Positions 1 through 59,065 of a stretch of DNA of 64,000 bases are shown here, piece after piece; position 1 is the first letter of the stretch; each line of letters starts with the position of its first letter. Both the position numbers and the translations under genes were made by a program. The stretch comes from an uncultured Candidatus Bathyarchaeia archaeon. GTDB taxonomy: Archaea; Thermoproteota; Bathyarchaeia; RBG-16-48-13; CAYPFQ01. A model generated the notes under the pieces. It saw only the letters and a program-made list of their open reading frames with translations. It ran no database searches and was not told where the DNA came from. The DNA lies in assembly GCA_964410135.1 (NCBI GenBank), contig CAYPFQ010000001.1, forward strand, positions 22,560-86,559, read 5' to 3'.

Positions 1-2443
1 TTGGTCCACAGGTTTTGCTTTTCCGAGTATGCCCGCCGCTTCATGTTTTGCCAGTTCTTCTCTGAGTTTTGCGATTTCCCGCTTCGCCTCTCTCAATTCC
101 ACCTCAATTCTCTGAGCAGCCTCTGGAACCTTTTCTAGATGGGTTTCATGGATTTCAGCTGCTCTTCGTAGTGCGGTTTCTCTATGCTGGACGAGTTTAA
201 TTGCAGGCACCCCCGCCGAAAATATTAGTCTTTCAACACCGTCCTGAATTCTGTCCGTGCGCATAATTTTGATTAGGCCCACCTCGCCAGTCGAACGACA
301 ATGGGTTCCTCCGCAAGCTTCGACTTCCCAGTCTTTGGTCCTAACTACTCGGATCTCTCTGCCTGGCACCACTCCACCCTGGTACAACCTAAATCCATAG
401 GCGGCTTCAGCTTTCTCTCGGGGCATCCAGGACACTTCGACAGGCATGTTCTCCATTACAATCATGTTGGCCAGGCTTTCAATTTCAGCCAGTTCATCTG
501 GAGCTATTCGCTTATAGTGTGAGATGTCAAGACGAGTGGCATCAATGCCTTTCTGCGCACCAGCTTGCCACACATGTTCTCCTAGAACCCTCCTTGCAGC
601 GCCCATTAGGATATGGGTTGCCGTGTGATGGCGCATGAGGCTGATTCGTCGAGTCCAGTCGAGTTCGCCCTCAACTTGGGCGCCTACATTTGGAGCGTTG
701 CCCTTGACTGCGTGCACGATTACATTGCCAACCTTCTGCGCATCTGTGATTTTAGCCTCTCCACTCTTCCAAGAAATGCGGCCATGATCTGCAGGCTGTC
801 CTCCGCCTTCAGGATAAAAGGCTGTTTGGTTTAGCACAAGATATTTGCCGTCTATGACATGGGAGACACGTGCCTTGAACTTGCGGGTATACGCATCTTC
901 ATAGTAAAGGGATCTAGTTGGTTTTTGGTCAGCCACCTTATCCTTTAATTTCTTCTCAAAGGATGTGACGGCAGGTTTAGGCGCAGTAACATGTCGTCTT
1001 GCCACGGTGGTGTAGAAATCATCTGGTACATTGACCTGTACATCCTCTTTGACAGCAATCTCCGAGACTAGAGTTGGCGGAATCCCGTGAGAGTCGTAGA
1101 GTTCAACAAGCTTGTTTACAGGGATGGTGTCTTCTCCTTTGGCTTTCAGATCACTGCAAATTTTTTTCACGAGCACAGTTCCACGTTCGAGAGTTCCGCG
1201 ATATTTTTCCTCCTCAATAGCTAGCACTTCTAAGATTTCGTTACGCACTCGTTTTAGGTGTGGAAAATCTGGAGACCAGAAATTAATTTGTAAATCTACT
1301 ATATCTGAGAGTCTGTTCTCGATGCCCAGCAATCTCAGTAGACGATAGGTCCTGCGGAGCACTAGCCTAGTTAGATAGCCTTCCCGTACATTTGAGGGGA
1401 CAATCCCTTCGGCAAGCATGAAGACTAGGCTTTTAGTGTGATCGAGAACTGCGAAAACGCTTTCAACTGGGGTTAGGATCTTGTGGAGCGTATCTAGATC
1501 CATGCCAATTTTTCTTGCGATTTGCTCCCGAAGTTTTTTGACATTGGCTACTTTTTCAACTCTCATGTCGCCTGAGTGCTTCGCATATTCGGATAATAGT
1601 TTTTCATCTGGCGACAGCGCGGCCATACGCATAACTTTGTCTAATGTGGATCCATATATGGCGTGAAAACAGCTTGGGGTACCTTGAGTCAGCCAAGTGT
1701 AGCGCTCTATTCCGTATCCAGTGTCGACAGTGCGGACTGGGAGTTTGATGAATTTTCCGTCTACTACTTTGTAGTTCATAAAGACAAGCGTGCAGACTTC
1801 GAAGCCTCCAATTATTCCTTCAACATCTGGTCCAGCGTTTCCGCCACCCGACCAAACACCTTCCTTGTAGGTTACGGCTTCTGATCTCACTCCCAGCTCC
1901 TTCACGACGAGTTCATGGTGGTATCGGACTGTCTGATCTTTCCAGTAGACTTCTTTCTTCGGATAGTTGAAAGCGTGATGCCCGCCCATCTCGAATATAG
2001 TGAGGTGTCTGCCGAACGTGAGCCCCACATTATCTATGTCCACAAATCTGATGCAGGGCTGGCTGATTACGAGCGGGTTGGCTGGGGGCGGAATAATTCC
2101 ATCCGTCACATAGGGCTGAAAGTCCACGATGCTGGCATCTGTGAAGTATAGGTCGTCTCTCCACCTCGACACGACTGGGTAGGGCGCGATCCGTTTATGC
2201 TTCTTTTTTTCGAAGAAGGATAAGAATAACTCTCGCATTCCTGGTATGTCATAGCGTTTTTTAGCTGGAGGATGCCCTATGAACTCATATTCTTGGCAGG
2301 GAGCTTCTCCACAAATTTCTTGATCGTGAATTTGAGTCCAATAAAATTCCCCGCATGTCTTACATTTTTTCCTAACGAATCCATGCTCATCGAAGAATGG
2401 GATGTGATACTCACTTTCAGGAAACTCTACCAAGGGCGATCCT
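1..2443 (-). CDS. alaS: alanyl-tRNA synthetase, N-terminal ~814 codons (C-terminus lies beyond window start); probable TTG start at 2441-2443
   Basis: Reverse translation near 2300-2443 gives (M)VEFPESEYHIPFFDEHGFVRKKCKTCGEFYWTQIHDQEICGEAPCQEYEFIG, the archaeal AlaRS N-terminus. The region ~300-640 gives the editing-domain motifs HTATHIL and CGGTH. It runs off the window edge, so the ORF track did not list it. Confidence 0.85.
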
Positions 2444-34060: not shown

Positions 34061-34151
34061 GGGCCCATAGCTCAGTCAGGTAGAGCGGTGGACTCTTAGC
34101 CTTGAGTGGGAGATCCAAAGGTCGGGGGTCCAATTCCCCCTGGGCCCGCCA
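34061..34151 (+). tRNA. tRNA-Lys(CUU) with 14-nt intron at the canonical 37/38 position (intron ~34099-34112); CCA encoded
   Basis: GGGCCCATAGCTCAGTCAGGTAGAGCG, then GTGGA-CTCTTA[GCCTTGAGTGGGAG]A-TCCAA, then AGGTC-GGGGG-TCCAATT-CCCCC-TGGGCCC-G-CCA. Without the intron the loop is CUCUUAA, anticodon CUU. The T-loop TCCAATT has an unusual C at position 55. Confidence 0.8.
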
Positions 34152-45877: not shown

Positions 45878-46813
45878 TTACTTTGAAATTGCTTCGAACA
45901 TTCTTTCTAGTGAAACTCTCGCCCTTTTGGCCATTGGTTCTGGAACGGTTACCCGATATCGTTCCTCTTTTAGCGCCATGTAGACCCGAGTGAGGTTGTT
46001 AAGTTTCATGTTGACGCACCACGCATCCTCATAGGCTGGGATAAACGTCTTATTAGGGTTCTCTCTATTAAGCCGGTGCAGGAGTCCCACTTCGGTTGCC
46101 ACGATGAATTTTTTGGCATTTGATTGTTTTGCATACTGGCACATCTGGGTCGTAGATCCTATGAAGTCAGCTGTCTGCTGGACATCAGGGGTGCATTCCG
46201 GATGCACCATCACTGTTGCGTCTGGGTTTAGCTCTTTTTGGATTAGTATATCTTCTTTTAAGAATAGGATGTGCGTTTGGCAGAAACCCCTCTCCGGTAT
46301 GGGAATTATCCTCTTGCCAGTTCTTTGTTCTAGATACCACGCAAGATTAATGTCGGGGCCGAAGATTATAGTGTCTGAATCCAATGAATCTACAATCTTG
46401 ACTGCGTTTGCAGAAGTGCAACAAATATCACACATTGCTTTCGCTTCAGCGAGGGTATTTACATACAAAACAATCGGGATGTTAGGGTACTTTTCTTTCC
46501 AAACTTTGATTTGTATTGCTGGAAGCATGGATGCCATTGGGCATTTGGCACCTAGGCTTGGAATTAGAACTTTTTTATCGGGATTTAGAATTACAGCTGT
46601 TTCAGCCATGAAGTCTACTGAGCAATGGACAATAATCTTTGCCTCTTTTTCCTCGATAGCCTTTTTTGCAAGTCCCACACTGTCGTCGACATAATCTGCC
46701 AGATCCTGAATCTCAGGTCTCTGATAGTTGTGGGCAAGTATAATTGCATGTTTCTCTTTCTTGAGTTTCTTGATTCGTTCGACTAGTTCTTCTGTCTTCA
46801 TTTTAACCACCAT
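45878..46813 (-). CDS. nadA: quinolinate synthase
   Basis: 311 aa. ILAHNYQRPEIQDLADYVDDSVGLA is conserved, and three Cys residues provide the FeS cluster ligands. Confidence 0.9.
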   Translation of the reverse strand: MVVKMKTEELVERIKKLKKEKHAIILAHNYQRPEIQDLADYVDDSVGLAKKAIEEKEAKIIVHCSVDFMAETAVILNPDKKVLIPSLGAKCPMASMLPAIQIKVWKEKYPNIPIVLYVNTLAEAKAMCDICCTSANAVKIVDSLDSDTIIFGPDINLAWYLEQRTGKRIIPIPERGFCQTHILFLKEDILIQKELNPDATVMVHPECTPDVQQTADFIGSTTQMCQYAKQSNAKKFIVATEVGLLHRLNRENPNKTFIPAYEDAWCVNMKLNNLTRVYMALKEERYRVTVPEPMAKRARVSLERMFEAISK

Positions 46814-47135
46814 GCGATACCGGGATGACTACTATCGTGTCATCTTCCCCAACTCTCGTTTCCAATCCTTGTAGGGCGCTTATTTCCACATCGTTTACGA
46901 GGATCAAGGTGTTGGGTCTTGGGTCGTTTAGTTCTGGATCGATAACGGCTCGTTTGAATGCGAGTCCAAGGCTCTCTGATAAGTCTTGTATTAGTTGTTT
47001 AATGGTTACAGGTGTTTCTGATTTTACCGAGATCTCGTTTTTTCCAGCGAGCCCTCTAAGAACCCCGACAAGCTTAACTTTAACTTTGCATGTCTCCGAA
47101 GACGTAGACATCTTCTTCGTAACTTCGTCCCCCAA
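46803..47135 (-). CDS. MoaD/ThiS-family ubiquitin-like beta-grasp protein ending in Gly-Gly (SAMP-like)
   Basis: 110 aa with the C-terminal ...DDTIVVIPVSHGG and a beta-grasp pattern. It overlaps the nadA start, so it is coupled to it. Confidence 0.55.
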   Translation of the reverse strand: MGDEVTKKMSTSSETCKVKVKLVGVLRGLAGKNEISVKSETPVTIKQLIQDLSESLGLAFKRAVIDPELNDPRPNTLILVNDVEISALQGLETRVGEDDTIVVIPVSHGG

Positions 47136-47952
47136 CCGTACTCCCTGGCGGTAGGTGTTTCAAATGTTTCTTTCGAAAGAGCTCTTTTAATTTAGCTCTT
47201 ATCACGGTGAGGTTTCGGTTTCTTAGGATTTCTAGCGGGATAAATAAGTTTAGTGGTCTCGCTGGAATGATGTGTCTTGTCGCCTTTCTGGCGAAAAACT
47301 GTTTCTTTGAGGCTACGGTGATTACGGATTTTTTATCGATTTGTGGAACTACGATTACGGCGTCTATTGTGCCATTATTCAGGGCATGTTTGGCATCTTC
47401 TGGTGTGGCATACTCGATGGTTGCGCCAGCTTTTCTTGTGGCTTCTTCAATCCGTTTAACCAAGTCATACTGGCGTCTAATGTCCATGGGCTTTGAATTG
47501 ACTATGAAGCCGCTTTGGCTGGTTAGGATAGATGCAGGGACCAGTTTAGATCCAACTGCCGACTCCGCGGCTTTTTGAGTGGTCTTGGTGATGCCTACTC
47601 TGAAGCTTTTCAAGATTGTAGGTAACTGGTTCTCTGTTTTTAGATCAGAGATTGTTCTGTACCAGCTGCTGAGGTGAATTTGAGGGCTTTTGTAGTTTAC
47701 TAGGCAGACTGGAACCCATTTACAGCCAAGCCTTTTTAATGCTACAAAACGGTGTGTGCCATCTAAGATCACGAGCGTCTTTTTATCGACTATAACTGGG
47801 TGTTTGACGTATCCATCATTGTGGATTCGTTTCATCATCTTGTCTACAAGGGACGGCAATGCTTCTTCGTGTGGGCGGATGGCATTAGTATTGGCTATGT
47901 CTATATCAAATCTGAGATCTCTGTGGTGGATTGTAACTAGTGGGGCGGCCAT
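47080..47952 (-). CDS. ParB/sulfiredoxin-like (DGxHR) domain protein with C-terminal uncharacterised domain
   Basis: 290 aa. The N-terminal HPVIVDKKTLVILDGTHRFVALKRLG resembles the ParB/Srx nuclease-like fold. The rest is unassigned. Confidence 0.45.
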   Translation of the reverse strand: MAAPLVTIHHRDLRFDIDIANTNAIRPHEEALPSLVDKMMKRIHNDGYVKHPVIVDKKTLVILDGTHRFVALKRLGCKWVPVCLVNYKSPQIHLSSWYRTISDLKTENQLPTILKSFRVGITKTTQKAAESAVGSKLVPASILTSQSGFIVNSKPMDIRRQYDLVKRIEEATRKAGATIEYATPEDAKHALNNGTIDAVIVVPQIDKKSVITVASKKQFFARKATRHIIPARPLNLFIPLEILRNRNLTVIRAKLKELFRKKHLKHLPPGSTVGGRSYEEDVYVFGDMQS

Positions 47953-48341
47953 TATGCGTGCTCCTCTGCCTCCTCGCCTGTAACTGCTTCTACGATGTCT
48001 GTAGTTACCTCGATGACGGCGTGCGCCTCTCTCAGGGCTACTTCTTTGATTATGTTTTCAGTCATCTCGCTGTGTGCTCGTATTTTTCGCTCAATCTTAA
48101 CTAAACAATGGAGTAGCGGGTCGGGGATGTGGTTTTTTCCTTCGGCGATCTGACGGATCATCGGTTCTAAGTATACGGGATCTCCGAGGCTGTAATATAC
48201 TGCGGCCTGGGCTTTTTTCATCGCTAATATTGCTACGCTTATCGCCATTAGTGGAGGGCTTTTTTCAGCTGTTGATAGATCAGCTTTCGCCTCTCGTAGG
48301 TATCGAAATGCCCAGCCTTTTCTGTATTCGTCAACAAACAA
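47952..48341 (-). CDS. HEPN-like helical protein
   Basis: 129 aa, all-helical, with an R-x4-H motif (ERKIRAH). It is tightly coupled to the ParB/Srx-like gene. Confidence 0.4.
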   Translation of the reverse strand: MFVDEYRKGWAFRYLREAKADLSTAEKSPPLMAISVAILAMKKAQAAVYYSLGDPVYLEPMIRQIAEGKNHIPDPLLHCLVKIERKIRAHSEMTENIIKEVALREAHAVIEVTTDIVEAVTGEEAEEHA

Positions 48342-48392
48342 AATCGTCAGCCCCTATCCCAATCTATCTGACTGAGCCATAATAAAACCTAA

Positions 48393-48611
48393 TTAGACAG
48401 TAGCTGCGGCTGAAGCTTCTTTCTTCTGTTCAATGCGCTTAATTCTTGCCGCATAACCTGCAATTCTGTTTCTTAGTCTTTTTGAGGAGACGGTTGCAAA
48501 TTGTTCTACCAGCTTTTTGTTGGTCTCGTAGTCGGCGGTGAATTTATCGGGATATGTTTCTACGAGTTCCCTCGCTAGCTTCTTGACTGCTTCTGGGCGT
48601 ACTCTCCCCAT
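48393..48611 (-). CDS. rps17e: 30S ribosomal protein S17e
   Basis: 72 aa. [25 protein letters not shown] matches S17e. Confidence 0.85.
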
Positions 48612-48690
48612 TCAAATGCCTCTTGATTATTGCCTCCATAAAGGTTAATAGATTAATGAAGGTTTTGTCGGCTCTTGCCAGCATTTTTAA

Positions 48691-48700
48691 GCTTTATAAT
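48691..48700 (+). promoter_or_regulatory. TATA-like box (GCTTTATAAT) ahead of the histone gene
   Basis: Located about 50-70 nt upstream of the histone start codons. Position is approximate. Confidence 0.3.
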
Positions 48701-48766
48701 GTAGAAGTTATAGAAAACCATTCAATGATTTCTATAAAATTCTAAAATTAGATGGAAGTGGTTGAG

Positions 48767-48985
48767 ATGACTTCAGAAGAGCTTCAGCTAGCGCCTATGC
48801 ACAGGATAATTAAGAAGGCTGGCGCTGAACGGGTGAGCGAGGAGGCTGCGGGCGAGTTACGTAAAGTGCTTGAAGAGGTCGGCATAAAAATCGCAAAAGA
48901 AGCTTTGGATTTTGCCACGCATGCTGGCAGAAAAACCGTTAAGGCCGAAGACATTAAGATAGCCGCTTCGAAAGTTACTAAATGA
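48767..48985 (+). CDS. archaeal histone (HMf-like, histone fold)
   Basis: [62 protein letters not shown] aligns along its length with archaeal histones. The ORF track starts 5 codons earlier, at 48752. Confidence 0.85.
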
Positions 48986-49072
48986 TAGTCTTATAGCATA
49001 ACGCTGACTAAAAATACTTATATCTATCCTCTAATTTTGATTTTTAGATGAAATTTTATCGGAGGGAGCTTC

Positions 49073-50722
49073 ATGAGTGTAGCGGTTCCAGGTGAATTGA
49101 GCGGTCAACCCATAATCATTCTAAAAGAAGGTACTGCGCGTAGACGAGGGCGAGAAGCCCAAAGAAACAATATTATGGCTGCGAAAATAATCGCTGAGGT
49201 TTTGAGGTCTACTCTTGGTCCACGTGGGATGGATAAACTGCTTGTGGACAGCCTTGGCGATGTTGTAATTACGAATGATGGCGCTACAATTCTTGACGAG
49301 ATTGATGTGCAACATCCCGCTGCAAAGATGCTTGTAGAAACAGCGAAAACCCAAGACAAAGAAGTAGGAGATGGAACTACTACTGTTGTTGTTTTGGCTG
49401 GTGAACTGTTGAAGAAAGCTGAAGAGCTTTTGGATCAGAATATTCACCCTACAACAATAGTGAGCGGATATAGGAAGGCGACTGACAAAGCCTTAGAAGT
49501 TCTATCAAAATTAGGGGTCACTACTGATATAAACGATCGTGCAACATTGAAGAAAATCGCTGTTACTTCAATGCACAGCAAGTCTATCGGGGCTGCGAAG
49601 GAACACTTCGCCGATATAGCACTTGAAGCTGTTAAGCAGGTTGCGGAGAAACGGGGTGACCACTGGATTACTGACATTGACCAGATTCAAATTGTAAAGA
49701 AAGCTGGTGAAAGCCTCATCGATACGCAGCTCATCAGAGGGATTGTTGTCGATAAGGAAGTTGTGCACTCAGAAATGCCTAAGCGAGTTGAGAAGGCAAA
49801 AATTGCACTGCTAGATTGCCCATTAGAAATTGAAAAAACCGAGTTTAGCGCAGAAATCCGAATTCGTGACCCAACTCAGATGAAAGCATTTCTCGACGAA
49901 GAGACGCATATGCTGAAAGCTATGGTTGACAAGATCAAGTCTTCAAATGCGAATGTCATCTTCTGCCAGAAGGGAATCGATGACATGGCACAGCACTTTT
50001 TAGCCAAAGAAGGAATCCTGGCTGTTAGAAGAGTGAAGAATTCTGACATGGAGAAACTTGCTAGAGCCACAGGCGCCCGGCTTGTTACAAATCTCGATGA
50101 TCTTAAACCTACTGACTTAGGTTCGGCAAACCTTGTATATGAGCGGAAGATCGGTGAAGACAAAATGGTGTTCGTTGAGGGATGCAAAGATCCCAAGTCG
50201 GTCAGCATACTCATTCGCGGCGGTCTGGAACGAATGGTAGATGAAGCGGAAAGAGCTATGCACGATGGGCTAAGCGTTGTTGCGGACGTGATTAAAAATA
50301 ACAGGATGGTGGCTGGTGGAGGCTCGATAGAGGCCGAAATAGCAAAACAATTACGTGACTACGCCCCTAAGGTCGGAGGAAGGGAACAACTCGCTATCGA
50401 AGCATTTGCCGAAGCTTTAGAGGTCATCCCCAAAACTCTGGCTGAAAATGCTGGGTTAGATCCAATCGACATAATGGTGTCTCTGAAAGCCGCTCATGAG
50501 AAGGCAAAGGGCACCTGGATGGGTGTAGGAATATTCAGTGGCAAAGTAGTTGATATGATGGAGAGTGGCGTAGTTGAACCCCTGAGCGTTAAAGAACAAG
50601 CAGTTAAGTCGGCGACGGAAGCTACCTCAATGATTATGAGGATAGACGACGTAATCGCAGCCTCGAAACCCTCTAAGAGAGAGATGCCGCCCATGCCTCC
50701 AGGTGGAATGGAAGGCTACTAG
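49073..50722 (+). CDS. ths: thermosome subunit (group II chaperonin)
   Basis: 549 aa with [17 protein letters not shown] and [16 protein letters not shown] motifs. The C-terminal tail is Met/Gly-rich. Confidence 0.95.
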
Positions 50723-51047: not shown

Positions 51048-51647
51048 TTGAGGTGGTCTAGGTTTAACAAAGTCATACTGATCACTGGGACACCTGGAAC
51101 AGGTAAGACAACTGTCTCAAGATTGCTGGCTTCTAAGCTGAATATTTTGCATGTTGATATTGGTGAGTTAGTGGCTAATGAAAATCTTGCTTCCGGCATG
51201 GATAAGGAGCGAAAAAGCTTGGTAGCTGACATTCCTAAAGTAGCTAAACGTGTAGAAGAGATTCTGCGGAAATCAAGGGGAGACATCATAGTTGATGGAC
51301 ATTATGCTGCTGATGTGGTTCCGAAAAAACTTCTTTCTTTTGCTTTTGTATTGAGGTGTGATCCTGATGAATTGAAGAAACGATTGGAGAGGGCTGGTGT
51401 AACTGGGAGAAAAAACCTGGAGAATGTAGCTGCTGAGATTTTAGATGTTTGTCTGAGCGATGCTGTAGGCGCCTATGGTACCAATAAGGTCTGCGAAATT
51501 GACACCAGCGGCAAAATTCCCAGAAGGGTAGTGGATGAAATCCTTGCTGTGGTACATGGGGAGACTGAGGCATCTGTTGGAAATGTAGATTGGTTAAAAA
51601 AATTGGAAGTAGAAGGGCGCGTTGAAGAATTTTTGGGGTGGATGTAG
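51048..51647 (+). CDS. putative adenylate kinase, Fap7/AK6 family
   Basis: 199 aa with TTG start. The P-loop ILITGTPGTGKTT and overall size match the archaeal AK6/Fap7 kinase. Confidence 0.8.
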   Translation: MRWSRFNKVILITGTPGTGKTTVSRLLASKLNILHVDIGELVANENLASGMDKERKSLVADIPKVAKRVEEILRKSRGDIIVDGHYAADVVPKKLLSFAFVLRCDPDELKKRLERAGVTGRKNLENVAAEILDVCLSDAVGAYGTNKVCEIDTSGKIPRRVVDEILAVVHGETEASVGNVDWLKKLEVEGRVEEFLGWM

Positions 51648-51842
51648 GCTCTGTATTTAATAATTGCTTGCTATAATTGTGGGCAACTTTTATTGGTAAA
51701 AAGTGGGCAAAAAACTAAGGTTTGCTCTTATTGTGGGTCAAGTTTTCATGTTATTCGAGCTAAGATTATTGCACGCGAGCGCTCTGCAAGGAGAGCTTCT
51801 CTTGTGCTTAGATCGTTGAAAAGGGCAAGAAAAGAGGGCTAA
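51648..51842 (+). CDS. zinc-ribbon reading frame (C-x2-C-x15-C-x2-C plus basic tail) directly in-frame after the TAG stop of the kinase gene; no canonical start before the first CxxC
   Basis: Translation continues ...GWM*ALYLIIACYNCGQLLLVKSGQKTKVCSYCGSSFHVIRAKIIARERSARRASLVLRSLKRARKEG*. The only in-frame ATG, GTG or TTG is a TTG lying between the two CxxC pairs. Confidence 0.35.
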   Translation, partial: ALYLIIACYNCGQLLLVKSGQKTKVCSYCGSSFHVIRAKIIARERSARRASLVLRSLKRARKEG

Positions 51843-53389
51843 GATGTGTTCTGAGCTTCATCTAGATGTGTTTGTATCAGGGTGTACCTAGTCTGCCCAG
51901 TTTTTTCATCGAGTTCTTTTTTGATTATGCCCTTCTCTGATAGCTCATTTAGAATTGGTACCGCTATTGGGTAAAACTCTGAGGTGGATACGACAGTCTT
52001 AATTTCATCATCGGTAAGAGATCCGTATTCTTTGAATAGCTGGTACAGCTTTGTTTGCATAATCAATTTTGCCATGGGCGGTTGCGAAGGTTTCTCTGCA
52101 ATTTCTATGTGGTATTCATAAAATCTTTTTTGCATTGTATTTTTCAGTTGGTCGTCAGATAACTGTGATAGGATTGAGGATTCTGTTTCTACATAGATTG
52201 GGAATGCGTAGGGGATTAGTGGCATGTTTACGATGGCTTCACCAAGTTTGAGATAGTGAAGATAACTTGCCTGTCTCTCAGTGAGCTTCATTGCTCCCTG
52301 CAGAATTTTTCGGTCATCCTCTGTCTTTATTTGGTGACAAATCCTTGTTGCAGCATTTTTCAGAATCTCATAAGAAACCTGTGTTGGAAACTGTGAGATT
52401 ATCACTAATCCTTCACCAAATTTTCTAAGCTCTGAAATCATCTTCTCTCCGATTGATGGCGGGTCTTCAGGGCGTCTGGCTGGGATTATATTGCGGGCTT
52501 CTTCGATTATTGTCACATGTTGGAGTTTAGAAAATTTCTCTTTCGTACGGTAATCATATAGGAGCTTAAGAAAGATTGAAGTGAAAATTTTTCTAATTTC
52601 CTGTTCCTTAAAGTGTCCCAGTTCTACAGACACTATGTCACTTAGAATATCTTCAATTGGGATTGTTGTTTGCCCGTTCAATGCTTTACCTGCCTGTCCC
52701 TCTGTTAGTGGTTTCAGCCTCCTAAGCAGGGCCAATTTGGTTTCATTGTCGTAGGCTGAGCGTATCGGAGCGCGTTCTATCTCCTGAACGATATCTGAGA
52801 CTATAGGTGGCAGCGATGGTTTCTCGCTAAAATAGCCGCATCTTCTATATGTACTCCGCAGTGCTTCCCTAAACATGTACCCTTGCGGCGGTGTGAAGTT
52901 GAATATATCCGTAAAAATATCTGTCACGAGACTCATGTGTTCGCTCAGATCTCCGGAAAGCGAGGGATCCAACGGGTTCACAGTTAATGGTGCTACATCT
53001 TTTCCAGGCGTGAAAACTAACCCATTTTTATGAGATACTATATTCCTGTACTCATTGTGCCAATCAATCACTAATACCTTTATTCCGAGTTCCACAAGTC
53101 TCGATAGAATCACACTGGCAGTTGTTGATTTTCCCGATCCGGTCATTCCGAAGATCGCGATGTGCGTATTCAAGTCTTCGAGACTTAGATGCACCCCGTA
53201 GAGATTGTTCCCATGTTTCTTAACCCAGCCTAAAAATGGACCGTCCCTTCGCACTTCACTTGGTCTTGGGAGATTAAAATAAGGTTCGACTACAAGATCG
53301 ACGGTCGTAGGTGTTGGCATGATAAAATTAGTCAGGGTAACAATTTCAGGTGCGATTAATGTTGAGGTTGAGGAACTGGAAAAGGGCAT
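51839..53389 (-). CDS. DUF87 ATPase (HerA/FtsK/VirB4-like) with C-terminal wHTH-like segment
   Basis: 516 aa. Walker A is FGMTGSGKST. The DWHNEY motif is typical of HerA/VirB4-type ATPases. It is the last gene of the operon. Confidence 0.7.
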   Translation of the reverse strand: MPFSSSSTSTLIAPEIVTLTNFIMPTPTTVDLVVEPYFNLPRPSEVRRDGPFLGWVKKHGNNLYGVHLSLEDLNTHIAIFGMTGSGKSTTASVILSRLVELGIKVLVIDWHNEYRNIVSHKNGLVFTPGKDVAPLTVNPLDPSLSGDLSEHMSLVTDIFTDIFNFTPPQGYMFREALRSTYRRCGYFSEKPSLPPIVSDIVQEIERAPIRSAYDNETKLALLRRLKPLTEGQAGKALNGQTTIPIEDILSDIVSVELGHFKEQEIRKIFTSIFLKLLYDYRTKEKFSKLQHVTIIEEARNIIPARRPEDPPSIGEKMISELRKFGEGLVIISQFPTQVSYEILKNAATRICHQIKTEDDRKILQGAMKLTERQASYLHYLKLGEAIVNMPLIPYAFPIYVETESSILSQLSDDQLKNTMQKRFYEYHIEIAEKPSQPPMAKLIMQTKLYQLFKEYGSLTDDEIKTVVSTSEFYPIAVPILNELSEKGIIKKELDEKTGQTRYTLIQTHLDEAQNTS

Positions 53390-54327
53390 AAAAAATTTCC
53401 TATAGTCTCGAGAAGTTCCACATTTTTGAGTTGTAACGCCTCCATTTCGGGAAAGACGGCGACTATCGCTGCAAGAACGCTGTTCACATTTTCCGCGAGC
53501 CTATTAAGAAGATTATCTAATTCGTTTTTGTCACCATCAGCCCATATGAAAAATAGTACTTCTGTTTGGAAGAATCCTACCTTGCTACCAAGATAAAGCC
53601 TCTTCAACTCAGATTTCTCTTCTTCGAGCATTCTCTCATCCACCGCTCCTAACGTGGCTTTTGAATCTCCTATGTATTTCACATCAGATTCTAATTGCCT
53701 TAGTTTTGACTTGAGTAGTTTTGATTCTGTACTGATTGGGTTAAGAGAAACGACGTAAATGCACGGTATGCCGCGTTTCTGAATACCTGAGAAGAAATCA
53801 CGTAGCTTATAGAATGTGGAAATGTACTCTAGCCGATTTGAGTAGGCCTCATCGCTTATTTCAACCTCAGGAATTCTAGGTCTGCCAGTAAGCCGTATCA
53901 CGGCCATTGCCCTAGCCCTCGATTTTGATTCAAATATCAGCGATCTTCCTTGCATAAGTTTGGCAGCTGTAACATTTAGTGCTTGAAAAATTTCTATTTC
54001 ATTTTTACCAACTACTCTTAACCGAATACCTGCTCGCCGTAGTATTCCAGTAACCTCCGAGGAAAAATGTCGCAGGAGAAGTGCACCGCCAAATAGGAAT
54101 GCGCTTCCTACGATAAGGGGGAGGTCTATCCCGCCAATTTTAGATGGAATTTTAATGCTTGATGACGTAAGCAACCAGCGTAAGTCAAGCAGTATGATAA
54201 TTGCCATGATGATTGGTATGCTAATCTGCATCAATCTGCCATCAGGCTTAGGCATAGGACTACCTTCGGCTAACCGGTCCACATCCAGCTGAATAAGCCT
54301 TGAGCGATCTCTTGTATCTCCTTCCAA
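53356..54327 (-). CDS. membrane-anchored protein (N-terminal TM segments + cytoplasmic domain), unknown family
   Basis: 323 aa with a hydrophobic N-terminal region (IPIIMAIIILLD, LPLIVGSAFLFGGALLL). It overlaps the DUF87 ATPase gene by 34 nt. Confidence 0.35.
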   Translation of the reverse strand: MEGDTRDRSRLIQLDVDRLAEGSPMPKPDGRLMQISIPIIMAIIILLDLRWLLTSSSIKIPSKIGGIDLPLIVGSAFLFGGALLLRHFSSEVTGILRRAGIRLRVVGKNEIEIFQALNVTAAKLMQGRSLIFESKSRARAMAVIRLTGRPRIPEVEISDEAYSNRLEYISTFYKLRDFFSGIQKRGIPCIYVVSLNPISTESKLLKSKLRQLESDVKYIGDSKATLGAVDERMLEEEKSELKRLYLGSKVGFFQTEVLFFIWADGDKNELDNLLNRLAENVNSVLAAIVAVFPEMEALQLKNVELLETIGNFLCPFPVPQPQH

Positions 54328-54491
54328 GTCTGACCGAAAAAGCTGGTGACCATGTTTATGACATTATGTACTAGTCCCAGCATCACGGTCAACATGAATA
54401 GTGCTATGACAAGCAGTAATCCCTCTTCCACTAACTGGGTTGCCGAGGTATTTCTGATCAGATCTAGGATTCGTTTGATTATGCGTTTCAC
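54270..54491 (-). CDS. Flp/type-IV-pilin-like small protein (candidate prepilin)
   Basis: 73 aa. The charged N-terminus MKRIIKRILDLIRNTSATQLVEEG is followed by a hydrophobic helix LLLVIALFMLTVMLGLV, which resembles the Flp prepilin pattern. Confidence 0.4.
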   Translation of the reverse strand: MKRIIKRILDLIRNTSATQLVEEGLLLVIALFMLTVMLGLVHNVINMVTSFFGQTWKEIQEIAQGLFSWMWTG

Positions 54492-54546: not shown

Positions 54547-55374
54547 TCAGTAAACAAGAAGCATCGGTAAAAATGAGGTAGCCACAATGAATATCCCCCA
54601 AAAAACTATCAGGGATGCGACAGAGTACATGTACGGGTTTTCAGCAAACGACATCAACCCAGCATAGTATGCAGAGATGCTAGATGTTACTGAAATGGCT
54701 ATTGCAAGAAGCCAGTGCACATTGAATGCTAAATTTGATCTAACAGCTAGATGTGAGATGATGATCGCCGAGAATAGCGGCAGCATGGCTAATAAGATAG
54801 CTGATGATGCCGAACAAGCAACTATTAGAATCTTAATCTTGAAAGACAGCCCCTTTGCTACATGCTCTCTCTCTTCTAGAAGCCTGCGGTTCTCTCGATG
54901 TCTTAAAATAGCTTGTGCCAGATGCTCTCCTGCTTTTTTTGAGTCGGTTTCAATAAGTCTGCAGACCATGAACATCAATGGACGGAGTTTTTTTAAGTTT
55001 GGCTGAGATGCCATATAATCGAACACTGAAACAAGTGGCAAACCACTCGCGATTCTGTTAGATACCTCGAGTAGTTTAGCACGTAATGGTCCGGCATAAT
55101 GGCTAATTGTGTTTTCATATGCAAGCTCTGGGCTGTTGCCTCGTTTTAGTTCCTCAGCAAGAAGCGTCAGAAACGATTCAAATTCACTCACTGCTTGACT
55201 TTCATTAATCTCTTTTTTTGTAAATATGGTCGGTAGCAAAGCCAAGATGGTTATCGTAATTGCAACGAAAGTAATGATGGCTATAGATGGGGTATACGTA
55301 ACTATGTAGATCGCTAGAGCTGCGAGAAAACCACACATAATTCCTGTAATCGTTTGGAACCGAGAGCCTCTCAT
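54547..55374 (-). CDS. TadC/GspF-like pilus platform membrane protein (T2SSF-like domain)
   Basis: 275 aa. TM helices at the N-terminus, a central cytoplasmic helical domain and C-terminal TM helices give the T2SSF topology. Confidence 0.55.
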   Translation of the reverse strand: MRGSRFQTITGIMCGFLAALAIYIVTYTPSIAIITFVAITITILALLPTIFTKKEINESQAVSEFESFLTLLAEELKRGNSPELAYENTISHYAGPLRAKLLEVSNRIASGLPLVSVFDYMASQPNLKKLRPLMFMVCRLIETDSKKAGEHLAQAILRHRENRRLLEEREHVAKGLSFKIKILIVACSASSAILLAMLPLFSAIIISHLAVRSNLAFNVHWLLAIAISVTSSISAYYAGLMSFAENPYMYSVASLIVFWGIFIVATSFLPMLLVY

Positions 55375-56180
55375 CCTAATAGATGCGCCTCGTTTCGCGT
55401 TAATCTATGGAATGTAAGATCCATCAATATGGTGTGAAGTGGAACTATTAAGAAAACATAGGGTGAACTGAATAAGCCCAGCATGGTTATGCCGAAAGAG
55501 AACACTAATGGTAAGAAGAAGCCTGAAGCTATGAAAACAAGTGCCTGACTTTCAAATTGAAGTGAAAACTCCTGGAAATAGCCTCTAACCTCAAACTCAG
55601 ATAAATCAATTAAATGTCGCAGAGTCCCTTCAGTTAGCATGCGCGAGGAGAGAATCTCAATAAGGCCGTGTCGAAATGCTATTGAAGGTTGGCTGTGCGC
55701 ATAATCCATCAATAATTTATCTGGATCTCGCCCGCTAAGAGTCTGAAAACTGACCTCCTTGATTTTCTCAGAGACATAGGGATAGTTTCCCAGTATAATT
55801 GCCTGTAATGCGTCGAATATCGATCCCGTTGATTTAAGAATGAAGTAAAATTCTTGAAGTATCAAGCTTGTATAGCTTGAGATCGTTATTCGTTCTACTC
55901 TTAGTTTATTCGGCAGATAATTGATAAGAAGTAAGAATGAAATATAGCCAAGCGTGATGGAAATGACTGTTGCAATTAAAGAATTTAAATAGAATAGAAT
56001 TGAGAACGTAGCTAACCCAATTGTTGTGGATATGCCCAAGGCGCCGGCTATCACGTCTTCTGGTTTAAATTTATAATAAATCGCGGCATTTTTTGTTAGT
56101 TCACTCAGAGGGATTCTCCTAACAACCTTGAGTGGAATTACTGGCGCAAAAAATGTGAAAGCAGTCCTTATCAGATTCAA
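55371..56180 (-). CDS. TadB/GspF-like pilus platform membrane protein (T2SSF-like domain)
   Basis: 269 aa with the same topology as its neighbour. The two are coupled by 4-nt overlaps, looking like a split FlaJ/TadBC. Confidence 0.55.
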   Translation of the reverse strand: MNLIRTAFTFFAPVIPLKVVRRIPLSELTKNAAIYYKFKPEDVIAGALGISTTIGLATFSILFYLNSLIATVISITLGYISFLLLINYLPNKLRVERITISSYTSLILQEFYFILKSTGSIFDALQAIILGNYPYVSEKIKEVSFQTLSGRDPDKLLMDYAHSQPSIAFRHGLIEILSSRMLTEGTLRHLIDLSEFEVRGYFQEFSLQFESQALVFIASGFFLPLVFSFGITMLGLFSSPYVFLIVPLHTILMDLTFHRLTRNEAHLLG

Positions 56181-57764: not shown

Positions 57765-58211
57765 TCATCTGGGCGCTCTAAGGCGCTCAACTATTGCGGG
57801 CACGTATTCGCTGATAGCGTCTATGATGCCATTGACACTAGCCTCTAGTGATGCAATCCTAGCTTCAAGATCGCTTTGAATTGGGCCATCAGGCGCGATT
57901 CTAACTTCCTGGGATAGTTTAGAAAATGCTAGAGCTAGTTTATTTACCTCCTCCTGCAGCGACTGGATAAACAACCTTTGCCTTTCAAATTCCTCCTGTA
58001 ATAACGTCAAACTCTCCTTATCCGAGGTAGATATTTGATCAGCCGCCGAGTTATTCGACATAGTGTCAGCATGGATCTCGTTGATTGCCTGCTCTACTTT
58101 CTCACCTGGAAATCCTAATTCTAGTAGCACATTTTTAATTGCGGTGGTTGAAACTCCGCTTCGAAGCATGGCATTTGCCAATTCGTCAACTGTTTTTTTG
58201 ATGGTCTTCAC
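57765..58211 (-). CDS. coiled-coil protein (148 aa)
   Basis: Helical, heptad-rich protein in the same operon. Confidence 0.3.
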   Translation of the reverse strand: MKTIKKTVDELANAMLRSGVSTTAIKNVLLELGFPGEKVEQAINEIHADTMSNNSAADQISTSDKESLTLLQEEFERQRLFIQSLQEEVNKLALAFSKLSQEVRIAPDGPIQSDLEARIASLEASVNGIIDAISEYVPAIVERLRAPR

Positions 58212-58504
58212 CCAGCCCTCTGAAACTCTCTTTGCAATTCTATCCTGTTCACGATCTTCACATAGGTTTTCAGAGACGCTATTTTCAGCTCAAATAAGCG
58301 TTGAGTGAACTCTATGCGAGATTTTATAGATGCGACGGCTTCCTCCATCAACAGTAGTTGAGACTTCAAAGAACGTAGCTCACTGCATAGGCTGTTGAAT
58401 CCAAGCTTTAGATCTGCGATTTCTTCCGCAATCTCAAAAAAAGAATCATTGTGGTTTAGCTTAGATTGTGAGTGCAATGAATGGCGCCTAACGTTCATCT
58501 GCAA
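58208..58504 (-). CDS. coiled-coil protein (98 aa)
   Basis: Helical protein with a 4-nt overlap onto the downstream gene. Confidence 0.3.
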   Translation of the reverse strand: MQMNVRRHSLHSQSKLNHNDSFFEIAEEIADLKLGFNSLCSELRSLKSQLLLMEEAVASIKSRIEFTQRLFELKIASLKTYVKIVNRIELQREFQRAG

Positions 58505-58542: not shown

Positions 58543-58758
58543 CTAAGCGACTGTTTCTGCTGTTGCGAATCTATTGCCAACTTGAGTAACCTTAATTCTC
58601 ACATGGTCGCCAGGCTTTGTATTAGGCACAAATATTACGAACCCTTGGATCCTAGCAATGCCTTCTCCCCGTCGACTCAGCTCCTGTATATCCACTTCGT
58701 ATTCCTTTCCTACTTCTACTGGCTTTGGACCGCCAAAGCTTCGCCTTCTGTAGCTCAC
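58543..58758 (-). CDS. TRAM-domain nucleic-acid-binding protein
   Basis: 71 aa. VGKEYEVDIQELSRRGEGIARIQGFVIFVPNTKPGDHVRIKVTQV is the stand-alone archaeal TRAM pattern. Confidence 0.7.
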   Translation of the reverse strand: MSYRRRSFGGPKPVEVGKEYEVDIQELSRRGEGIARIQGFVIFVPNTKPGDHVRIKVTQVGNRFATAETVA

Positions 58759-58759
58759 T

Positions 58760-59065
58760 TTATTTCCCTCCTTTGACTACGTTTAATTTACCGTACTTTT
58801 TACCGACACTAAGCTGAATTTCGCCTCTGAAGGCTGTCACATAACCGTTCTCAATTTGCACAGTATCACCAACTGAAACCCCGTCTATTTGCTCGTTCCA
58901 CAAAACTAGTTTAATGGAGCCAGTCGCATCGGATATTACGGCATTTGCTACCCTATGTACATTGTAACCATATCTTGAGTAAACTTCTCGGCTCGCGGAT
59001 TTTTCAACAACTTTTCCGGTTACATTGACCTGTTTCATTCCAGTTTTTAATTCCTTAATCTGCAT
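58760..59065 (-). CDS. OB-fold nucleic-acid-binding protein (SSB/RPA-like single OB domain)
   Basis: 101 aa. MQIKELKTGMKQVNVTGKVVEKS...ISDATGSIKLVLWNEQ...GDTVQIENGYV is a typical tRNA_anti/RPA-type OB-fold sequence. Confidence 0.55.
   Translation of the reverse strand: MQIKELKTGMKQVNVTGKVVEKSASREVYSRYGYNVHRVANAVISDATGSIKLVLWNEQIDGVSVGDTVQIENGYVTAFRGEIQLSVGKKYGKLNVVKGGK

Follow-up and report, generated by a model that had tools for sequence, protein, structure and literature searches.

The DNA analysed here (the window) is a stretch of 64,000 nucleotides (nt) from an uncultured Candidatus Bathyarchaeia archaeon (GenBank assembly GCA_964410135.1, contig CAYPFQ010000001.1, positions 22,560 to 86,559). 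On its minus strand two overlapping open reading frames (ORFs) encode a membrane protein and a DUF87 ATPase, which are the two halves of a single gene of the VirB4 family. The split gene closes a type-IV-pilus-like operon, and its two reading frames meet at a conserved heptanucleotide. The closest named relatives are Candidatus Bathyarchaeia metagenome-assembled genomes, and the flanking genes are housekeeping genes (thermosome, histone, S17e, DNA ligase and inositol-1-phosphate synthase), so the locus is chromosomal. Below, homologous loci carry L numbers and homologous proteins P numbers; lengths of proteins are in amino acid residues (aa).

Two reading frames encoding the halves of one ATPase

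The features of the split gene are as follows.

51839-53389, minus strand: downstream half, DUF87 ATPase ORF, 516 aa, ATG start
53356-54327, minus strand: upstream membrane-protein ORF in its longest form, 323 aa from the TTG at 54327
53356-54255, minus strand: upstream half in its probable form, 299 aa from an ATG; two transmembrane (TM) helices followed by a VirB4-like N-domain that contains a long helical insertion
54073-54243, minus strand: region of the two TM helices (Kyte-Doolittle scan), which span residues 5-34 and 42-61 in the 299-aa form
53356-53389, minus strand: overlap of the upstream ORF and the ATPase ORF, 34 nt
53389-53395, minus strand: T_TTT_TTA heptamer (X_XXY_YYZ), candidate -1 slip site, in phase with the upstream ORF
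ATPase residues 1-26, minus strand: disordered linker
ATPase residues about 30-400, minus strand: P-loop motor of the FtsK-HerA/VirB4 type
53123-53149 (ATPase residues 81-89), minus strand: Walker A, GMTGSGKST, in invariant columns of a 51-sequence alignment
51845-52078 (ATPase residues 438-515), minus strand: C-terminal winged helix-turn-helix

For the upstream ORF, the ATG at 54255 (299 aa) is a likelier start than the TTG (323 aa). A start at the TTG would give a 58-nt overlap with the preceding 73-aa gene; the ATG has GAAGGT in front of it, leaves a 14-nt gap after the 73-aa gene and is the start used by the gene calls on three assemblies of the same organism. A 181-nt segment spanning the junction of the two ORFs is identical in three independent assemblies (JGI 3300022551, SRR9661626 and SRR5215466), and the junction is therefore not an assembly artefact. 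An assembly or sequencing error at the T-run was also rejected given that a like arrangement is found in 12 further loci.

Homologues of the ATPase differ in length, being about 490-510 aa in the closest Bathyarchaeia, 679-787 aa in other Bathyarchaeia, about 675 aa in Brockarchaeota and other Thermoproteota and about 580 aa in Nitrososphaerales. The longer homologues have an N-terminal extension that is homologous to the upstream ORF of the window, such that both halves lie on a single chain of 570-790 aa. The upstream ORF aligns with residues 19-279 of P0009 (787 aa) with 34% identity (E 3e-50), while the remainder of P0009 shares 55% identity with the window ATPase; the upstream ORF also matches P0014 (E 1e-25) and the Nitrososphaerales protein P0018 (E 5e-8). 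A conceptual fusion of the two window ORFs gives a single high-scoring segment pair across the junction with P0009, P0014, P0035, P0013 and P0018. In the alignment with P0009, residues 19-793 of the fusion correspond to residues 19-783, and the linker is 32 residues long in both. Because relatives encode the fused chain, the ORF pair represents one VirB4-family gene divided in its interdomain linker and not two distinct proteins.

The gene is split in 13 loci from about seven deep lineages (52-78% ATPase identity), in which both halves have been maintained. In a neighbour-joining tree the fused P0009 and P0014 fall among the split forms, the tree being too crude to infer reversions. The position of the ancestral indel is ambiguous, as the 0-frame tails share short motifs (TGE[IV], QIP) with the fused linkers. 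The hot-spring metagenome loci L018-L026 encode 450-575-aa membrane ATPases with 29-32% identity, in which the P-loop follows almost directly after the TM region and the VirB4-like N-domain is lacking; these possibly belong to a different HerA/CedB-like family.

The upstream half is membrane-anchored. The helices of its structure model comprise residues 6-30 and 44-80, and this two-helix anchor resembles a VirB3-like hairpin. Bathyarchaeia and Brockarchaeota forms have the TM region, and the Nitrososphaerales forms of about 580 aa lack it. TrwK/VirB4 is the top or only significant match of the N-domain, which is thus of the VirB4 N-terminal type. By sequence, the family of the N-half has 17 representatives among 1.84 billion proteins.

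The downstream half is a competent P-loop motor with a winged helix. It matches Pfam DUF87 (PF01935) with 80.5 bits against a cut-off of 23.2 and has a RecA-like motor fold with an intact Walker A and an acidic Walker B, where the pair E296-E297 is likewise invariant in the 51-sequence alignment. The AlphaFold model, made with 51 homologues, is confident (pLDDT 89.7), and its motor is closest in structure to VirB4. The close Bathyarchaeia relatives P0002-P0011 and P0013 share the winged helix, which P0014, P0012 and P0015 lack. Among curated family hidden Markov models (HMMs) the best match is CedD (NF053655; 193 bits, E 7e-57), the score lying below the 600 bits over the full length that define the equivalog. 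The other models score lower still against their cut-offs: VirB4_CagE (TIGR00929) with 42.2 bits against 643, two HerA equivalog models with 76.5 against 800 and 51.5 against 970, and CedB with 19.7 against 700. A HerA of the defence type was considered and rejected, the PADLOC models for such proteins reaching at most 74 bits, weaker than the 193 bits of CedD.

A preliminary description of the locus, made from the sequence, had placed the 516-aa ATPase ORF and its 34-nt overlap with the upstream ORF correctly, and had recognised both the DUF87 motor and the winged-helix-like C-terminal segment. The 3' end of a pilus operon, to which it assigned the pair, agrees with the T2SSE, two T2SSF-like and Flp-like prepilin genes that lie upstream and are co-directional. 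The structural comparison of the ATPase that it suggested identified VirB4 as closest, and its HerA/VirB4-like assignment is upheld by the CedD HMM and the VirB4 structure as far as the family is concerned; the partner of the ATPase turned out to be the N-half of the same protein. Membrane anchoring of the supposed 323-aa protein is seen in two hydrophobic helices, although 299 aa is the likelier length, and the fold prediction proposed for it yielded a VirB4-like N-domain instead of a channel. At the junction the gene overlap had been noted but the conserved slippery heptamer had been missed.

The junction of the two reading frames

The heptamer forms part of the upstream codons AAT TTT TTA (N287, F288 and L289) and ends with the A of the ATPase ATG. 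Across the overlap, the tail of the upstream protein, CPFPVPQPQH followed by the stop codon, is read in the 0 frame, and MPFSSSSTSTL of the ATPase in the -1 frame. A conceptual trans-frame product has the junction peptide …NVELLETIGNFFMPFSSSSTSTLIAPEIVTLTNFIMPTPTTVDLVVEPYFNLPR, and the 0-frame product has the C-terminus …GNFLCPFPVPQPQH. As expected of a frameshift site, the heptamer is in phase and leads into a -1 ORF of 516 codons that continues the same protein; it is the sole in-phase X_XXY_YYZ in the 64-kb window that joins at least 150 open 0-frame codons to at least 150 in the -1 frame. Three in-phase X_XXY_YYZ heptamers lie within 53386-53400 on the minus strand, namely A_AAT_TTT (53398), T_TTT_TTA (53395) and C_CCT_TTT (53386), of which only T_TTT_TTA is conserved in relatives.

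The downstream half is in the -1 frame in all 13 split loci. An in-phase T_TTT_TTA or T_TTT_TTC is present in 12 of these, and the thirteenth has A_AAT_TTT. The codon before the T-run varies by lineage (AAT, AGT, GAT or GGT) but has T as its third base throughout, and TTT is invariably the first Phe codon, even where it accounts for only 19-28% of the Phe codons. Using the codon usage of each locus, the joint probability of the heptamer across six deep lineages is about 1.2e-5, which indicates conservation beyond coding needs. Other T6 runs in the genes of the split loci are rare (5 in 25.7 kb). The in-frame relative P0009 has no heptamer and reads GGT TTA TTC TAT. The fused in-frame relative L030 carries a T8 run (…TCT TTT TTT TAC…, L030:1180-1187) at the site of the T6 of the split loci; the length of the T-run may change over evolutionary time, and phase variation of the DNA itself is a possibility.

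The first canonical start in the -1 frame lies 0, 10, 11, 11, 17, 17, 18, 23 and 23 codons past the heptamer in nine loci, and in L004, L008 and others a conserved block of about 12 codons, LIxPE[IV]VxLTNF, lies upstream of any start codon. In the relatives the ratio of synonymous to non-synonymous changes is 33:25 in the downstream frame versus 13:48 off-frame. Over the nine codons after the heptamer it is the 0 frame that is constrained (18:20 versus 8:33 for the -1 frame), and selection switches frame at about the 0-frame stop. This stop has a fixed position over the Leu-Ile codons of LIxPE and varies in type (TAA, TGA, TAG). It shares bases with a UUG preceded by GGAG or GGTG in three loci and with an AUH Ile codon in seven, and in two loci it adjoins a GUG, a pattern that fits termination-reinitiation. 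In the window, as in the 90%-identical sister P0141, translation could begin at an ordinary overlapping start, the ATG at the heptamer, which has AGGA 8 nt upstream.

Single-sequence folds gave lineage-specific hairpins in L005, L010, L016, L006, L014 and L009 and a weak fold in the window clade (-5.6 kcal/mol), while RNAalifold found no consensus for a conserved downstream stimulatory structure in 12 loci. A purine-rich stretch resembling a Shine-Dalgarno (SD) sequence lies 5' of the T-run (window 53380-53402; L001, L004, L006, L008, L009, L014 and L062), in the forms GGAAA, GGGAAA, GGGAG, GAGGAG, GAAGGA and GAAGGG, the encoded amino acids differing by lineage. Pyrimidine-rich stretches lie 3' of the run (UUUCC, UUUCCC, CUUCC, CUUCUC, UCCUUC and UUCUUC). 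Pairing of the purines and pyrimidines across the T-run is possible in most loci, without a fixed register and again with no RNAalifold consensus.

Programmed -1 recoding as the main route of expression, by a slip on U_UUU_UUA/C or the addition of one U in the T6 run, would yield an 805-aa protein, with non-shifted ribosomes making the 299-aa N-half, so that the product ratio would be fixed as in bacterial dnaX. In favour of it are the recurrence of the heptamer after four different codons, the rarity of T6 runs elsewhere, the -1 frame that is open from the heptamer in all loci, with its first canonical start at a variable distance of 0 to 23 codons, and the conserved, mostly synonymously changing codons ahead of any start in L004 and L008. 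The fusion would moreover keep the 32-residue linker of P0009, which lacks the heptamer, and there is an archaeal precedent in fucA1. As the main route it is nevertheless rather unlikely. Recoding is not the primary reading for the window because the ATPase has its own ATG, the overlap zone is constrained in the 0 frame, the stop position with UUG, GUG or AUH nearby fits termination-reinitiation, no conserved stimulatory structure was found and the run is indel-prone (T8 in L030); the trans-frame product, in addition, is a prediction from sequence. Two coupled polypeptides are the safest reading for the window. These points leave unexplained that T6 is kept at synonymous sites in every lineage, and recoding in some form therefore has roughly even chances. 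For a conserved -1 recoding signal U_UUU_UUA/C in an archaeal cellular gene, acting by ribosomal or transcriptional slippage on T6 and setting a fixed product ratio, the chance appears to fall slightly short of even. Recoding may be the ancestral solution, start codons having been added later in some lineages.

In Escherichia coli dnaX (tau/gamma) a full-length and a truncated product arise by a -1 slip on a homopolymeric heptamer. The dnaX site has an SD sequence 10 nt upstream and a strong downstream hairpin, whereas neither is conserved at the split loci. The only demonstrated archaeal -1 frameshift is that in fucA1 of Saccharolobus solfataricus, where the overlap is 40 nt (PMC8211752) as against 34 nt in the window. 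As in fucA1, two ORFs in a -1 arrangement encode the N- and C-parts of one protein and share a homopolymeric X_XXY_YYZ. The fucA1 heptamer is A_AAA_AAT. The heptamer type of the window is kept across about six deep lineages; unlike fucA1, the window frameshift is a candidate, with a competing ATG.

The pilus operon and its genomic neighbourhood

The genes around the split gene are as follows.

58543-59065, minus strand: OB-fold Ssb-like gene and TRAM-domain gene, directly upstream of the pilus operon and co-directional with it
57765-58504, minus strand: small coiled-coil proteins of 148 and 98 aa that head the operon, with homologues in the same place in L004, L005, L016 and L036-L038
56177-57751, minus strand: pilus-assembly ATPase of the T2SSE/FlaI/TadA type (Pfam T2SSE, 63.8 bits; NCBIfam FlaI and TadA matches)
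54547-55374 and 55371-56180, minus strand: polytopic platform proteins (TadB/TadC-like T2SSF), from hydropathy and homologues
54270-54491, minus strand: Flp/type-IV-pilin-like prepilin, 73 aa, with a class III signal
51048-51647, plus strand: AAA_18 kinase, syntenic anchor, convergent with the ATPase gene
49073-50722, plus strand: thermosome, syntenic anchor

A co-directional, tightly packed gene array spans 59065 to 51839 on the minus strand. With a T2SSE ATPase, platform proteins and a class III prepilin, the operon is of the Tad/Flp-like type IV pilus kind. The window platform proteins have no Pfam match; their homologues in L006 and L007 carry PF00482 (T2SSF). Cleavage of the prepilin is predicted between ...NTSA and TQLVEEGLLL, placing a Glu at +5, and the motif [KR]xx[AG]/[ST]Q[LM][VI]EEGLL (the slash marks the cleavage site) is common to 18 loci across Thermoproteota. 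In relatives the prepilin gene lies directly upstream of the ATPase gene (tblastn).

Linkage to the pilus genes was assessed in 35 loci of Bathyarchaeia, Nitrososphaerales, Thermoprotei and Brockarchaeota that have at least 38% identity and keep upstream sequence. In 33 of them a T2SSE ATPase gene precedes the DUF87 ATPase gene by about 3 kb (tblastn), accompanied by two T2SSF-like genes and a Flp-like pilin gene. The exceptions are L009, on a 1.25-Mb contig, which keeps the prepilin, N-half and ATPase genes and has no T2SSE/T2SSF homologue within 8 kb upstream, and L030, without a T2SSE match in what is only 1.2 kb of upstream sequence. The linkage of the ATPase gene to the pilus operon is thus ancient.

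The context differs from that of a type IV secretion system (T4SS) with VirB2, VirB3, VirB6 and VirB8, the neighbours being T2SSE, T2SSF-like and Flp-like pilin genes. The operon encodes no NurA, Mre11, Rad50, Sir2 or nuclease partner, and no homologue of a prepilin peptidase (Peptidase_A24) was found anywhere in the 64-kb window. In L004 and L007 a divergent cluster upstream encodes a Peptidase_A24 prepilin peptidase, a protein of about 310 aa and small pilin-like proteins, four or five in number; a comparable cluster occurs in L005, where the gene at the peptidase position has no Pfam annotation. Homologues of this cluster are absent from the whole window. The T2SSE ATPases of relatives are 700-743 aa long and have an extra domain (L005:5051-7156, L006:1826-4057 and L007:5996-8119), with weak PF27713 matches in L005 and L007, as against 524 aa in the window. 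A small Mrr_cat gene (restriction-endonuclease fold) follows the ATPase gene in L005 (11752-12099), L006 (8482-8799), L007 (12990-13343) and L063 (2336-2608) and is absent from the window.

Among loci that keep downstream sequence, the kinase gene is convergently downstream in most and the thermosome gene is present in about half. The block of thermosome, histone, S17e, small protein and Urm1/ThiS-like genes (window 46803-50722; L002 and L005) matches the Sulfolobales neighbourhood, a synteny that is unusually deep in reaching from Bathyarchaeia to Sulfolobales. In the main text of the papers searched on archaeal type IV pili, type IV filament (TFF) systems and Ced, no description of an operon combining a pilus with a VirB4/CedD-like ATPase was found. 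The only RNA gene in the window is a tRNA of 88-91 nt at 34061-34151 on the plus strand (Rfam scan, 56 bits); ARAGORN did not assign its anticodon ("tRNA-???"), and it is probably an intron-containing archaeal tRNA. The scan of the window for bacterial promoters and terminators is uninformative for an archaeon.

Relation to CedD and proposed role

CedD (Saci_0667/SiRe_1715, arCOG00286) is the second ATPase of the crenarchaeal DNA-import (Ced) system and is essential for DNA import, though not for aggregation (PMC11868833, PMC11823120). It consists of a transmembrane anchor, an N-domain and a HerA/VirB4-like ATPase (PMC11868833), and traits expected of a family member include induction by DNA damage and co-occurrence with CedA and CedB. 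The reported range of CedD/TedD comprises Sulfolobales, Desulfurococcales, Acidilobales and Thermoproteales (PMC11868833, PMC11823120). The neighbourhood of the SSO0283-family ATPase in Sulfolobales contains kinase, thermosome, S17e and Urm1-like genes (PMC2948915). The kinase and thermosome genes also adjoin the 528- and 541-aa CedD-like genes of Pyrodictiaceae and Desulfurococcales (L052 and L053), where the anchor is kept and no T2SSE gene occurs in the 1.9 and 4.5 kb of sequence upstream. SSO0283 itself we take to be CedD. The Pyrodictiaceae CedD-like protein scores only 287 bits on the CedD model.

The window gene resembles CedD in the best HMM match of its motor, in lying beside the chromosomal block of thermosome, S17e and Urm1-like genes, and in overall architecture, which is seen in the two ORFs taken together and in the fused orthologues. 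It is unlike CedD in that its score reaches one third of what the family model requires, the gene is split and a C-terminal winged helix is added; its N-domain is also larger, resembles that of VirB4 more completely and has no detectable sequence similarity to that of CedD. Moreover, it ends a type IV pilus operon whereas the CedD gene stands alone, and its host belongs to the Bathyarchaeia, outside the reported range. It is placed here in a CedD-like clade of the VirB4 family, as a probable positional orthologue of CedD. CedD membership proper is not established, because the score is a third of the cut-off and the N-domain lacks profile similarity.

Bacterial VirB4/TrwK proteins, including VirB3-VirB4 fusions, differ in that the window ATPase falls far short of the VirB4_CagE cut-off (42 against 643 bits), and their systems in that genes for VirB2, VirB6 and VirB8 are absent from the operon, where the ATPase has type-IV-pilus genes as partners. 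The motors of FtsK/SpoIIIE are only distantly related and FtsK has no VirB4-like N-domain; no homology is claimed between the winged helices of FtsK/SpoIIIE and of the window ATPase.

The reading that we favour, with rather more confidence than doubt, is that the two ORFs are halves of one membrane-anchored ATPase gene of the VirB4 family, in the CedD/SSO0283 clade, whose second half is translated separately. The gene was split in the disordered interdomain linker in one Bathyarchaeia lineage. The upstream half supplies the two-helix membrane anchor and the VirB4-like N-domain, and the downstream half the linker, a P-loop motor that would form a hexamer, and the C-terminal winged helix. Most likely the motor is translated as a separate polypeptide from the AUG inside the end of the first ORF, its translation being coupled to that of the upstream ORF, and would dock onto the membrane-bound N-half via its conserved but disordered N-terminal peptide. 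Alternatively, or for a fraction of the product, slippage into the -1 frame on the U_UUU_UUA that runs into this AUG may give an 805-aa fusion. The assembly would form a hexameric pump at the membrane, the terminal component of the Flp/Tad-like pilus operon, and by analogy with CedD would most likely move DNA across the membrane in pilus-mediated uptake or exchange. The winged helix would engage DNA, in a layout resembling the anchor, motor and gamma domain of FtsK.

Several observations weigh against parts of this reading. Most relatives have no canonical start where the conserved coding of the second half begins, and independent initiation is therefore not the general mechanism of the clade; in the window, the SD-like motif before the ATG is weak. 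The CedD match covers profile positions 211-522, which is the ATPase part only, and remains far from the 600-bit cut-off, and comparison of the N-domain with the N-termini of the L052 and L053 CedD-like proteins (hhalign) found no profile similarity (probability 0.2%). The operon contains no CedA, CedB or VirB6-like channel gene, the window outside the operon not having been screened for VirB6-like genes. The evidence that suggests DNA translocation consists of homology and synteny.

The preliminary description had taken the two ORFs for different proteins, a channel or anchor partner and its ATPase, as in CedA/CedB or VirB6/VirB4. The genes do overlap and always co-occur, and the ATPase is related to CedB and VirB4, but the partner has two TM helices and not six or seven, adopts the VirB4 N-domain fold and is fused to the ATPase in many relatives, and the CedB model falls hundreds of bits below its cut-off (19.7 against 700), making this highly improbable. 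Equally hard to sustain is a decaying pseudogene, or a HerA of defence or repair associated with NurA or Sir2: the frame is disrupted inside an otherwise single gene and there are weak HerA matches in NCBIfam and PADLOC, yet the disruption is conserved across 13 loci with both halves under purifying selection, the HerA models reach at most 76 bits against cut-offs of at least 800, the PADLOC matches lie below that of CedD and the operon lacks the expected partners. VirB4 energises pilus biogenesis in T4SS, and the ATPase might likewise serve the pilus, as a VirB4-like motor that extracts or re-inserts Flp-like pilins during assembly or retraction in archaea without PilT. Such a role is in keeping with the strict linkage of the ATPase gene, within the operon, to those for T2SSE, the T2SSF-like proteins and the prepilin, and type IV pili of archaea are able to retract although no retraction ATPase is known for them, according to work cited in a passage of PMC11823120. 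The winged helix, however, points to nucleic acid, CedD as the closest characterised relative serves DNA import and not aggregation, and no T2SSE gene is seen in the short sequences upstream of the CedD-like genes in L052 and L053. A role in the pilus is thus unlikely, if less so than the two preceding explanations, and translocation of DNA by a split VirB4-family ATPase is preferred.

CedD was first described in 2025 and only in Crenarchaeota. The locus described here is new in having a split, winged-helix-bearing CedD/VirB4-like ATPase that is embedded in a pilus operon and lies outside the known CedD lineages, and it implies that many Bathyarchaeia annotations of a "hypothetical membrane protein" and a "DUF87 ATP-binding protein" are halves of one machine of the VirB4/CedD type. 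For programmed frameshifting in Archaea, the heptamer where the gene is split offers a well-defined candidate site. If recoding takes place, it would bring the number of -1 frameshifts known in Archaea to only two and would set a fixed ratio of membrane-bound N-half to full-length VirB4/CedD-like DNA translocase, within a pilus-linked DNA-transfer system that would extend Ced-like biology to Bathyarchaeia, Nitrososphaerales and Brockarchaeota. Positional orthologues of CedD end the Flp-like pilus operon in Bathyarchaeia, Nitrososphaerales (the order that includes the soil ammonia oxidisers), Thermoprotei and Brockarchaeota. The operon provides a concrete gene set for pilus-linked DNA transfer, and the linkage of a pilus and a DNA motor within it suggests that exchange or uptake of DNA by way of pili is an ancestral and widespread trait of Thermoproteota.

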